Part shown: positions 17,991-21,264 of the stretch, one piece after another
Layout: each line of letters opens with the position of its first letter
Position numbering within the stretch: the first letter of the stretch is position 1
Assembly (NCBI GenBank): GCA_964508365.1
Contig: CAZDTP010000023.1
Coordinates: forward strand, 1-54,338
DNA from: an uncultured archaeon
Lineage (GTDB): Archaea; Asgardarchaeota; Lokiarchaeia; Sigyniarchaeales; SOKP01
Direction of reading: 5' to 3'
DNA: 54,338 nucleotides
The notes under the pieces: generated by a model
What the model saw: only the letters and a program-made list of their open reading frames with translations
Told to the model about the DNA's origin: nothing
Databases searched by the model: none
Translations under genes and position numbers: made by a program

Positions 17991-18257
17991 TTACGAGCTA
18001 AGCAGTTGAAAGAGAATCGTAGCGTGAGGGATATAGAATTGATCTTTAACCTTAATCACAACAGTATGAAAATATTCAGCTAAGCCTAAGAAACCACGAA
18101 TAACTGATTCATCTTCTTCAAATTTAAACACAATTTTAGCAATAGCTGCGCCAGTGCTGAAAGTGGCTTTTTCATAGACTCTTTCGTCAATTAAGGGGAT
18201 TTTAAGCTCATTGACAATTTCATATACTCGCTTGATGAAGAGTTCTCTCTTGGGAAT
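17991..18257 (-). CDS. Conserved-looking 88-aa hypothetical protein, probable ATT start (absent from the ORF track)
   Basis: Open frame reads (M)PKRELFIKRVYEIVNELKIPLIDERVYEKATFSTGAAIAKIVFKFEEDESVIRGFLGLAEYFHTVVIKVKDQFYIPHATILFQLLSS-stop. AGGTG lies 7 nt before ATT, and the frame fills an otherwise empty 700-bp gap. Confidence 0.7.
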   Translation of the reverse strand: MPKRELFIKRVYEIVNELKIPLIDERVYEKATFSTGAAIAKIVFKFEEDESVIRGFLGLAEYFHTVVIKVKDQFYIPHATILFQLLSS

Positions 18258-18517
18258 ATTAAAACACCTATTTATATTGAATACTAATTATTAAAATTAC
18301 AAATGAAATATGATATATAATATATTAGATTTGAAACATTTAATAGTTTTTTTTTAACCATGAAAAATATTGAAGCATTGAATTAAATTTAGGTAAAACT
18401 ATGATACAAGTATTATAAAAAAATAAAAATATAAATTAATAAATTACAATTACTACTATAGCTATATAGTATTCTTTTAAAAAAATTGATTAAAATTTTG
18501 GAGGAATTGAACTAACC

Positions 18518-19207
18518 TTGGTTTCGAAGGAATATAAGAAGATAGAGAGAGTCGTTAGTTTTATGAAAAAGGGTTTAACCTCTTTAAGCGACGACTTGGA
18601 AGAGACGGTTAAAGGGATTAATGATTTTAAAAAATCGTTAACCAAAGCCTTGAAAGATTTGAAAGATGTTTCTATTGAACCAGAATTAAAAACTGTTAGT
18701 ACATCCTCTAAGAAAATTGTAGCACCTGCGGATGAAACCGCTAAAACTGCAGCAGCGAGCACTTTATTTACTTTATTAAGTAGTAGCCCTGCTCCAGCAC
18801 AAGAAGTACCTACAGCTACCACAGCTGCAGCATCACCAACTGTAGGTGGCCCTCCTAAAGCTCCTGGAATTGGCCCTCCACAAAGACCTGCAACAGGAGT
18901 ACCTCCAAAAGCACCCACTACAGGTGGGCCACCTAAAAGATCTAATTTACCTCCAGCGCCAAAATTACCCCCTAGTTCAGATGGTAAGCCCCCTAAAGCT
19001 CCCAGTTCAGGAGTTGTGCAAGCACCGGCATTTGCTAAGAGACCAACACCCCCAGCAGCGCCAATGACGGGTATTCCAGCCAGACCACCTGGAGTTCCAG
19101 TAGTTTCCCCTGCACCAGCGCCTCAAGCAGGAGGTGGTTTAGGTTCTCTCCGAGATGAAATGTTAGAGGAATTAAATCGTCTAAAGAAGATTATGAGAGG
19201 AGATTAG
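18518..19207 (+). CDS. Coiled-coil / proline-rich protein with C-terminal WH2-like motif
   Basis: GGAGG RBS then TTG; N-terminal ~55-aa amphipathic helix; repeated GxPPK[AR]P motifs; C-terminus GGGLGSLRDEMLEELNRLKKIMRGD. Confidence 0.8.
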   Translation: MVSKEYKKIERVVSFMKKGLTSLSDDLEETVKGINDFKKSLTKALKDLKDVSIEPELKTVSTSSKKIVAPADETAKTAAASTLFTLLSSSPAPAQEVPTATTAAASPTVGGPPKAPGIGPPQRPATGVPPKAPTTGGPPKRSNLPPAPKLPPSSDGKPPKAPSSGVVQAPAFAKRPTPPAAPMTGIPARPPGVPVVSPAPAPQAGGGLGSLRDEMLEELNRLKKIMRGD

Positions 19208-19337
19208 TAACTAACTCCTTATTTCTTATCTATTCCTTATTTTTATTACTTTTTAACACAAGTCTTTGCAACTTACATAGTTCAATATTTTTAATTCAAA
19301 ACATTTTTAATCATCGATTATAAAATATTTAGTATAG

Positions 19338-20084
19338 ATGGACATAAACAATTCTATCATCTGCGAAAACGATATACCAATCGTCGTCCCTAAACGCATA
19401 ATGGTGCTTGCTGGTCATCCAGATGACGAAATAATATCTTGTGGTGGCACTCTTCTGAAATATCAGTCCTTAGGATCAAAAATAATCGTTATAGTTGCGA
19501 CAAGTGGTGTTGGTGGCTATGCCAGAACTAATCAAAAAGAAGGAATTATGAATCAAAGAAAACACGAGCTTGATTCAGTTCGATCATCGTTGAAGTGTGA
19601 AATTATCGAATTAGAATTTCCTGAAATGGACATAACCCGAGAAAAAATCTCTAAAATAACAAATCTTATTAGGGATATTAAACCTCAAGTTATATTATTG
19701 CCTCATCATTCTGATTTTCATCGAGTGCATAGAAATTTATCCCTAATTTCAAGAGAAGCTATTTATCATTGTTCAACAGGCAAAGCTTATGGGGGTTACG
19801 AAAGAAACTGGATTCCATTAGGAGTGTATTATTACGAATCTCCTTCATGTAAATTCGAATATATTGATAGTTCTGCTTTTATTATAGTAGATATTGAAGA
19901 GTATTGGGATAAGAAAAAAGAAATATTCAATATGGCTTACTTATCTCAGAAAGAAGTTTTAGAGAGAGTTATAGAATGGGCGGAAGATACTGCAATTTTA
20001 AGAGGAAATGAAATAAATTCGTCATATGGAGAAGCTTATGTTTTAGAAACTACTTATACTCCACTTAAACTTTTATTAGTATAG
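19338..20084 (+). CDS. PIG-L/LmbE-family N-acetyl deacetylase
   Basis: AGHPDDEIISCGGTL, VATSG, IRDIKPQVILLPHHSDFHRVH and C-terminal RG...YGEAY. Confidence 0.88.
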   Translation: MDINNSIICENDIPIVVPKRIMVLAGHPDDEIISCGGTLLKYQSLGSKIIVIVATSGVGGYARTNQKEGIMNQRKHELDSVRSSLKCEIIELEFPEMDITREKISKITNLIRDIKPQVILLPHHSDFHRVHRNLSLISREAIYHCSTGKAYGGYERNWIPLGVYYYESPSCKFEYIDSSAFIIVDIEEYWDKKKEIFNMAYLSQKEVLERVIEWAEDTAILRGNEINSSYGEAYVLETTYTPLKLLLV

Positions 20085-20139
20085 ATATAAAAAGATTAAA
20101 TGTTGTTAATTAAATATGCGAAAATTTCGCTAAAATTAA

Positions 20140-21264
20140 ATGGGTATTATGGGCAATCTTACTGTTGTTTTAGATATAGGGCAGTTTTCCGCAAAAGCGG
20201 GTTTCGCTGGCGAAGATATGCCCAGTCAAGTATTCTTTACGATTGTAGGAAAGCCTAAATATAGACAAATTGATTACGAGTATGGTAGTGTTCGACAGGA
20301 CGACTATTACGTAGGAGATGAGATTCAATCCATAGGTTTATACAAATTGTTTTACCCTATTGATAAGGGCATAATACAGGACTGGGTCTCCTTCGAAAAA
20401 ATAATTGATTATATTTTCTATAATTTAAGAGTTGATTCTAGTTTAGTTAATATTTTATTCGCTGTCCATCCATTGTTTCCTCGTAATGATTTAAAAAAGT
20501 TATTTGAATTATTTTTAGAGCATTATCAATGCAATGCATTTTATCCAGTATTAGATTCTATGCTTACTTTATATGCTGGAGGATTTCAAACAGGCTTGAT
20601 AGTAGAGATAGGAGATAGTCTAACAAGAATAGTCCCAATTTATCAAGGATATAAACTTGATCATGCAATCAGAATTCTTGAAATTGGTGGAAGAAGCTTA
20701 ACAAGGTTTATGGAAAAAATATTAGGTGAAAAAGGGTATTCAACAGATTCTTCAATAAGAAGAGAGCTCGTTAGAGCCTTAAAGGAAAAAGCATGTTTTG
20801 TTTCCCTCGATTACAAAGAAGATTTGAAGAGAGTTGAACAATATGAAAAAGAATATTCATTACCCGATGGCTCTACGATTTCTTTAGCTAGAGAGAGATT
20901 CGAAGTTCCGGAATTGTTATTCAATCCCTCAATGGAATTAGAGGAAGATTCTCTCCCAGAAGCAATTATAGATGTAATTGAAATGTGTGACCTAGATATC
21001 CGTCCGGATTTATTAAACAACATTTTTTTATCAGGAGGGTCTTCGATGTTTCCTAATCTCAAATCTCGAATCTATCAAGAATTAGAAATAGAATTAGCGC
21101 GGCGTAAGAAGAAAAATCAAATTATTAAAATAATAGCACCCCGGGAACGGATTTTCTCAGTTTGGGTTGGAGGATCGATTTTAGCAATGATTCCCGAATT
21201 CGAGCAGAATTGGATAACCAGAGCGAAATATTTTAAAGAGGGTTTCCCAGAGAACCTTTTATAA
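20140..21264 (+). CDS. Actin-family protein (Asgard actin-related protein)
   Basis: Colinear with actin: VVLDIG..SAKAGFAGED.P, YVGDEIQS, YPI.KG.I.DW, IVPIYQGY, LKEKACFVSLDY, YSLPDG, ERFEVPELLFNP, CDLDIRPDL, LSGGSSMFP, IIAPRER.FSVWVGGSILA. Confidence 0.96.
   Translation: MGIMGNLTVVLDIGQFSAKAGFAGEDMPSQVFFTIVGKPKYRQIDYEYGSVRQDDYYVGDEIQSIGLYKLFYPIDKGIIQDWVSFEKIIDYIFYNLRVDSSLVNILFAVHPLFPRNDLKKLFELFLEHYQCNAFYPVLDSMLTLYAGGFQTGLIVEIGDSLTRIVPIYQGYKLDHAIRILEIGGRSLTRFMEKILGEKGYSTDSSIRRELVRALKEKACFVSLDYKEDLKRVEQYEKEYSLPDGSTISLARERFEVPELLFNPSMELEEDSLPEAIIDVIEMCDLDIRPDLLNNIFLSGGSSMFPNLKSRIYQELEIELARRKKKNQIIKIIAPRERIFSVWVGGSILAMIPEFEQNWITRAKYFKEGFPENLL

Follow-up and report, generated by a model that had tools for sequence, protein, structure and literature searches.

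The window analyzed here is a stretch of 54,338 nucleotides (positions 1 to 54,338 of contig CAZDTP010000023.1, assembly GCA_964508365.1) from an uncultured archaeon of the Asgardarchaeota (Lokiarchaeia; Sigyniarchaeales; SOKP01), and its subject is a gene for a 229-amino acid protein, referred to below as the proline-arm docking-helix protein (Table 1). Orthologue and profile searches place the gene in an undescribed, nearly universal, Asgard-restricted protein family. The family has a three-part architecture of interchangeable heads, a variable spacer, and a constrained tip that is also carried by other proteins. Its product appears to be neither an enzyme nor a WH2-family protein, and the architecture suggests a tether that presents a docking helix on a long flexible arm at the cytoplasmic side. 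In the preferred reading the protein is a modular tether with an end helix that docks on some conserved partner; Lokiactin is the leading candidate, at a probability of roughly one in three. To our knowledge no protein has been known to tie Lokiactin to the membrane, and a single-copy, nearly universal, Asgard-restricted family with an anchor or coil, a flexible arm, and a nearly frozen helix is a concrete candidate for that link.

Architecture and distribution of the family

The AlphaFold2 model of the protein, built with 14 orthologues, consists of three isolated helices joined by low-confidence linkers, with no compact fold (predicted template modeling score, pTM, 0.21). The long head helix is probably a coiled coil, judging by this model. 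The second helix carries the motif ΦFxxLLxG, which is seen in the soluble-head form only. The arm that follows is 30% proline, 17% alanine, and 11% glycine and includes LPPxPK[LM]PP, which is conserved across the order. The C-terminal tail is GGGLGSLRDEMLEELNRLKKIMRGD, in a fuller reading GGLGSLRDEMLEELNRLKKIMRGD, and is predicted to form a 19-residue amphipathic helix with a hydrophobic seam at residues 208/211/215/219/222/226; residues E214, E218, R221, and K223 are invariant. The long N-terminal helix, proline-rich region, and terminal helix described in the initial annotation are thus all confirmed, as are five PP[KQ][AR] cores in the arm (at residues 112, 120, 129, 138, and 158), but the strict repeat G.PP[KQ][AR] is matched by only four of the five. 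A Pfam scan of the whole protein (E<=0.1) returned a sub-threshold match to DUF3086 as its sole result, and no EVH1 or other domain was detected with Pfam or NCBIfam.

Orthologues of the gene are present in 37 of 40 relatives; every one is named “hypothetical protein” and none has a Pfam domain. Within the order, the tail has a mean pairwise identity of 0.83, compared with 0.39 for the proline-rich arm and 0.24 for the first linker, and across the phylum the tail keeps the near-invariant core L[RK]xEM[LM]xE[LI]x[RK][LI][KR]xΦΦ. Among Asgard genomes at least 85% complete, a profile of the tail alone detects it in 221 of 267 genomes, which represent 58 of 67 genera, and one copy per genome is the rule. 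Given the contrast in identity between tail and arm and this distribution, what had been noted is more than chance. The source genome has one open reading frame (ORF) matching the tail profile, the one described here (E 4e-11; the runner-up has E 2). The L. ossiferum orthologue lies at CP104013.1:729367-730239(-), with a mass of 26.80 kDa from an ATG start or 29.08 kDa from a TTG start, and is the sole tail-bearing ORF of that genome at E<=0.05. An exhaustive search of 1.84 billion representative proteins with the tail profile gave 79 matches, each a cluster representative; ten of these were looked up, and all that carry a name come from Asgard metagenome-assembled genomes. A full-text literature search for the motif strings returned no paper, and the family is undescribed in the literature searched. 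Pan-Asgard members are recognized by a head, a proline-rich arm, and a terminal core helix, all of which this protein has.

In the loci fetched from other Asgard classes, the same proline-rich arm and tail core are attached to differing heads. The first type is the soluble helix followed by ΦFxxLLxG, as in this protein, and is found in Lokiarchaeia and several other classes. The second is a single hydrophobic membrane-spanning segment followed by lysines, and the third is a large head of 560-630 amino acids with many hydrophobic segments, in a lineage (f26) where 15 of 15 genomes carry the tail. A SHOCT-like domain in the membrane-anchored heads has no Pfam support. The membrane-anchored members resemble the ZipA/FtsZ tethers in having an N-terminal transmembrane anchor, a long proline-rich linker, and a small cytoplasmic C-terminal module; however, the globular end of ZipA receives a peptide of FtsZ, whereas here the tether itself carries a peptide-like helix, and there is no homology.

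The tail helix is also found outside the family. The 79 matches include four Ras/Roc-family GTPases as well as several zinc-ribbon proteins that belong to no Pfam family, some with two or three tandem copies, and in these proteins the C-terminal position is not constant. Its presence on such proteins suggests a docking motif for a shared receptor instead of a private feature of one family. The zinc-ribbon carriers have an unassigned C-terminal alpha/beta region.

Several tail-bearing sequences are of interest in their own right. Six Asgard GTPase-linked proteins (P0121, P0124, P0129, P0165, P0181, and P0194) have an unnamed zinc-ribbon module after the docking helix, with the sequence CPxCG-x2-NH-x2-YL-x2-FYF ... 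GIPCCxCFKKIF and without a Pfam family. P0174, a family member of 549 amino acids from a 2153-base metagenome contig, has an extra N-terminal transmembrane segment and a TIR domain C-terminal of the tail (Pfam TIR_2, E 6e-18); the two may be truly fused, or the short contig may have led to a read-through call. In a complete Asgard genome of 1.4 Mb, the soluble-head orthologue at L048:3740-4357(+) weakly matches Pfam CCDC53, a WASH-complex subunit, below the cut-off (E 0.012; 16.5 bits against 24.6), a similarity that probably reflects coiled-coil composition.

The partner of the terminal helix

According to the preferred reading, the head would fix or oligomerize the protein, as the sequence and distribution data suggest. 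In the soluble form this would be the role of the 45-residue coiled-coil helix and the short ΦFxxLLxG helix, in a protein that always co-occurs with an 88-amino acid alpha/beta protein and is usually encoded next to it; in other classes, one or several membrane-spanning helices would serve as the anchor, with the following lysines placing the remainder in the cytoplasm. The disordered proline-rich arm of 100-150 residues would, on the same kinds of data, act as a long flexible spacer, and the 19-residue amphipathic helix at its tip might then dock in a groove of some conserved partner in the cytoplasm. The partner could be Lokiactin, by way of the hydrophobic groove that lies between its subdomains 1 and 3, in the manner of the C-terminal helices of arcadin-2 and ParR and of the WH2 helix. 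Such a protein would couple actin filaments to the membrane or cortex, or supply them with monomers. Canonical Lokiactin, encoded on another contig of the source genome (G000 C22:34564-35706, minus strand), is 64-82% identical across the phylum, so that its conservation matches that of the tail. The hydrophobic residues M215/L216/L219 match the LLxxI spacing of WH2 helices, and in one archaeal family (f1) the gene adjoins an actin paralogue. A weak hint is that the tail is not detectable in three lineages in which the best actin shares only 50-54% identity with Lokiactin (f24, genomes G137, G081, and G104; f21, genome G060; f15, genome G049). All these points in favor of actin are indirect.

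Arcadin-2, the crenactin regulator of Pyrobaculum calidifontis (PDB 5LY3), is also archaeal and likewise combines a structured core, an unstructured linker that is not conserved, and a small, conserved helix at the C terminus; experiments show that its final 17 residues by themselves bind crenactin in the hydrophobic groove, with a dissociation constant of 31 nM (PMC5173319). Unlike the present gene, however, arcadin-2 belongs to the arcade cluster beside crenactin, and its binding needs a tryptophan, of which there is none in this tail. The tail profile has no match to 5LY3 at E<=10, and linkage to an actin paralogue is found in one archaeal family only (f1).

Several observations weigh against Lokiactin as the partner. 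Pfam WH2 (PF02205) has no match at E<=10 in 16 diverse 40-amino acid tails searched with hmmscan against Pfam-A, and the tail profile searched against all PDB chains at E<=10 finds no WH2, thymosin, VASP, arcadin-2, or ESCRT-III chain. That the tail is carried by GTPases and zinc-ribbon proteins would agree equally well with a signaling hub and with actin. The published Lokiactin co-immunoprecipitation from L. ossiferum names gelsolins, a profilin, and an Arf as enriched, and not this family (PMC13716822). The lineages with divergent actins may be one clade or may be too diverged for detection of the tail, and are not independent; the tail is also not detected in the singleton lineages f10, f13, and f30, which have an ordinary Lokiactin (64-69%). 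Genomic linkage to actin is a trait of the single archaeal family f1. The initial annotation had pointed to an actin-family gene two genes downstream on the same strand, and it is indeed there, beyond a PIG-L family gene, but at 44% identity to the Lokiactin of the source genome it is a paralogue and not Lokiactin itself. The idea that the linkage might extend across genomes holds in f1, where orthologues of this paralogue (61-97% identity) adjoin the proline-arm gene wherever both can be placed on one contig, but not elsewhere: in f2 the likely orthologues (49-58%) are 44-71 kb off or on other contigs, and in f5, f6, and f33 there is no orthologue.

Two further points concern the co-immunoprecipitation. 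The part of its Supplementary Table 2 considered here (bioRxiv 10.1101/2025.11.30.690169) has no row at 26.80 or 29.08 kDa and no row matching the six genes that neighbor the L. ossiferum orthologue, both of which are uninformative, as they cover only this part of the table and the locus tags are unmapped. The co-purified 38.1-kDa “Arf” was rejected as a carrier of the tail, since L. ossiferum has only the one tail-bearing ORF.

The same tether could instead dock on a hub other than actin, most plausibly a small-GTPase or membrane-traffic component, and would then serve as a scaffold recruiting the hub to the membrane or the 88-amino acid protein. This is possible, and nearly as likely as docking in the Lokiactin groove. 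The occurrence of the helix on Ras/Roc GTPases and zinc-ribbon proteins, in some with two or three copies, argues for it, as do a Ras-family GTPase gene just upstream of the proline-arm gene in two f2 genomes, the lack of actin linkage outside one archaeal family, and the fact that the proteins named as enriched in the published Lokiactin co-immunoprecipitation do not include this family. The source genome and L. ossiferum, however, each have a single tail-bearing ORF, so the link to GTPases is not general; no candidate receptor has been identified, and a near-invariant tail asks for an equally invariant receptor surface. Even with a partner other than actin, the helix would mark a new docking system that extends across the Asgard archaea and includes Ras-type GTPases, and one that would bear on the localization of signaling proteins without lipid anchors in Asgard cells.

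The initial annotation had proposed a WASP/VASP-like actin regulator, which is supported only in part. In its strict form this would be a homologue or equivalent of WASP/WAVE or Ena/VASP, with an arm that recruits profilin-actin and a tail that promotes nucleation or elongation as a WH2 or F-actin-binding (FAB) segment. The layout on which the proposal rested, a coil, a proline-rich region, a glycine hinge, and an amphipathic helix, is real, and the end helix is very strongly constrained. Lokiarchaeial tails also share with the WH2 segments of WASP, WIP, Spire, and thymosin-beta4 a short amphipathic helix with ΦΦxxΦ spacing and then L-K-K-Φ, after a proline-rich region. Tandem copies of the tail in a few Asgard proteins recall the tandem WH2 nucleators. 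Unlike WH2, the tail has the leucine of its LKK three residues early, its basic pair is not conserved, and the whole is one predicted helix of 19 residues, so that LKKI lies inside a continuous helix and not in an extended strand after one. LKKI, whose conservation had been expected of orthologues, is kept within the order (13 of 14 sequences), but elsewhere in the phylum the position reads LKTL, IKEI, LREI, LKRL, LKSI, LKKF, or LKKY. There is no acidic or central region for Arp2/3. With no WH2 or VASP match in the profile and PDB searches above, the tail is, as far as sequence can tell, not a recognizable WH2, and its WH2 spacing and resemblance to the VASP FAB are a lead and not family membership.

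Ena/VASP proteins consist of EVH1, a proline-rich region, and an EVH2 with a G-actin site, an F-actin site, and a tetramerizing coiled coil. The present protein shares a probable oligomerizing coiled coil and a proline-rich region with them, and its glycine-led amphipathic basic tail helix recalls the VASP FAB segment GGGGLMEEMNAMLARRRKA. The order, however, is inverted, the coil being N-terminal, and Pfam detects neither EVH1/WH1 nor VASP_tetra nor any other family model. Typical profilin ligands are runs of five or more prolines, while the repeats here are PPK/PPS, with no such runs. Some Asgard profilins bind polyproline weakly, but those of Loki reportedly do not bind the polyproline of VASP (PMC8410842). 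WH2-like motifs have been reported in Asgard archaea as LKKT-like strands inside gelsolins only (PMC9433394; PMC13716822, bioRxiv 10.1101/2025.11.30.690169). No free-standing WH2 protein or protein resembling a nucleation-promoting factor is described for them in the literature searched, in agreement with the initial annotation, which knew of no established Asgard WH2 nucleation-promoting factor. A strict WASP/WAVE or Ena/VASP counterpart is therefore unlikely.

The end helix might also be a zipper that associates with itself or with other proteins, tail to tail or tail to head, to build networks or to recruit tail-bearing GTPases to the membrane-anchored members. The hydrophobic seam has a regular 3-4-4 spacing, the best PDB similarities of the tail profile are variants of the GCN4 zipper (a non-significant E 0.24), and several heads unrelated to one another carry the helix, which is also present in tandem copies. 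Nevertheless, it is single-copy in most genomes, so hetero-pairing cannot be what it does in general; interfaces for self-binding tend to drift through co-variation, but this tail is nearly frozen; and AlphaFold2 does not pack the tail on the head (at the pTM given above). A zipper is for these reasons improbable. Among other searches with the tail, similarity of GGGLGSLR to an encapsulin cargo-loading peptide was rejected as chance level (E 0.45).

A resemblance to the MIM1 type of MIT-interacting motif (MIM) would have the tail bring the protein to Vps4, or to another MIT-domain protein of the Asgard ESCRT system. The genome has a Vps4 with an MIT domain (G000 C88; L068 502-1719, minus strand), one of its ESCRT-III proteins ends in KELEEELNKLKSRD, which resembles MLEELNRLKK, and MIMs also follow flexible, often proline-rich linkers. 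However, the hidden Markov model (HMM) of the tail scores neither of the two ESCRT-III tails of the source genome (next best E 2), the consensus (D/E)xxLxxRLxxL(K/R) cannot be placed on the core without the invariant E218 falling at a required leucine and M226 at the K/R position, and the proline-arm protein has no Snf7 domain. This reading is highly improbable, and like the WASP/VASP and zipper readings it is less likely than docking on Lokiactin or on a hub other than actin.

To return to Lokiactin, a bolder form of the preferred reading would make the end helix an Asgard-specific actin-groove module, and the family, anchored in the membrane in some classes and paired with the 88-amino acid protein in others, either the missing link between Lokiactin and the membrane or cortex or a primitive, pre-eukaryotic, Ena/VASP-like factor at filament ends. 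This extension is conceivable but doubtful.

The 88-amino acid neighbor

Upstream of the proline-arm gene, at a distance of 260 base pairs and on the opposite strand, lies a hidden gene for an 88-amino acid protein, here called c3. The ORF list misses it because its 5' end lacks a nearby ATG, GTG, or TTG; the frame opens ATT CCC AAG, 7 nucleotides behind AGGTG, and from the sequence the start is probably the ATT at 18255-18257. At the same position, six members of the genus that were compared, including the one in the window, have ATT in four, ATG in one, and TTG in one. Gene callers shorten c3 to a 46-amino acid form with a GTG start, the only form contained in the ESM Atlas.

The c3 gene adjoins the proline-arm gene in f1, f3, f5, f6, f7, f16, and f25, whether divergent, convergent, or co-directional, and the adjacency is borne out by the NCBI locus tags JSV62_03265 and JSV62_03270, which are consecutive. 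As it keeps this place in several classes, c3 is a steadier neighbor than the actin paralogue. It is present in 105 of 300 genomes, in soluble-head lineages only, and was found in none of the genomes of f9 (0/28), f26 (0/21), and f31 (0/11). The c3 protein probably works with the soluble head as a direct partner, and may take the place of the membrane anchor that other classes have. It is probably not what the tail binds, since the tail is kept in lineages where c3 is not found.

The AlphaFold2 model of c3 is confident, with a predicted local distance difference test score (pLDDT) of 90.7 and the order alpha-beta-beta-alpha-beta-beta-beta. The protein has no match in Pfam or NCBIfam and none in a profile search of the PDB, and the ESM Atlas gives nothing named; Foldseek against the PDB gives nothing better than E 0.2, and a wide VIA-align search reaches at most Z 4.5 and singles out no family. 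A Roadblock/LC7 fold was considered for it and is unsupported by both the profile and the structure searches. A c3 paralogue with an ATG start is present elsewhere in the source genome, at G000 C3:32163-32429(+), with no proline-arm gene nearby. It is just upstream of a small zinc-ribbon-like gene and a gene for 207 amino acids whose product looks like a TATA-box-binding protein.

Gene structure and surroundings

The proline-arm gene is real. The TTG start, the codons that follow (MVSK), and the upstream GAGGA are kept throughout the genus; in one orthologue the start codon at that place is ATG. An antisense frame of 142 amino acids at 18490-18918(-), which had been considered earlier, was rejected as a gene and is merely the Gly/Ala-rich mirror of the proline-rich codons. 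A sigma-70-type promoter scan of the spacer between the two divergent genes was no better than shuffles, the model being unsuited to archaeal promoters.

Table 1. Positions of the proline-arm gene, its segments, and its neighbors in the window
Feature	Position	Strand	Residues	Remarks
Hidden 88-amino acid gene c3	17991..18257	-		Orthologue HMM matches the frame at E 2.4e-32
Spacer common to both divergent genes	18258..18517	.		260 bp, AT-rich; GGAGG 13 nt before TTG (direct reading)
Proline-arm docking-helix protein	18518..19207	+		229 amino acids; stop codon within coordinates
Head, one long helix	18527..18664	+	4-49	AlphaFold2 pLDDT 81-91; mean pairwise identity 0.46
Second conserved helix, AKTAAASTLFTLLSS	18734..18781	+	73-88	AlphaFold2; mean pairwise identity 0.59
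Proline-rich arm	18815..19132	+	100-205	Length and sequence variable; AlphaFold2 pLDDT mostly <60
Docking helix, LGSLRDEMLEELNRLKKIM	19142..19198	+	209-227	Gly-rich hinge precedes; pLDDT 85-88
PIG-L family deacetylase	19338..20084	+		Pfam PIG-L E 2.4e-20; BshB1-like, below cut-off
Actin paralogue	20140..21264	+		374 amino acids; Pfam Actin (PF00022) E 2.7e-89, profile positions 6-401 of 410

The PIG-L gene between the proline-arm and actin-family genes is a neighbor in most of f1 and in one f3 genome. The 130-bp gap before it contains oligo-T tracts at 19240-19254 and AT-rich, TATA-like boxes, because of which it is probably a separate transcription unit. The other f2 neighbors of the proline-arm gene (purA, an Eco57I-type methylase, and an energy-coupling factor (ECF) transporter) look like housekeeping synteny and give no functional hint. 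The same appears to be true next to the membrane-anchored forms, where the neighbors are, by eye, what we take to be rpiA-like, PIN-domain, tRNA-endonuclease-like, and hydrogenase-protease-like genes.

The source genome has six or seven actin-family genes in all. A second gene of the Lokiactin type (C60:19977-21011), which shares 83% identity with the first, runs off the end of its contig, and an actin C-terminus of 49 amino acids on C103 may be its missing end.

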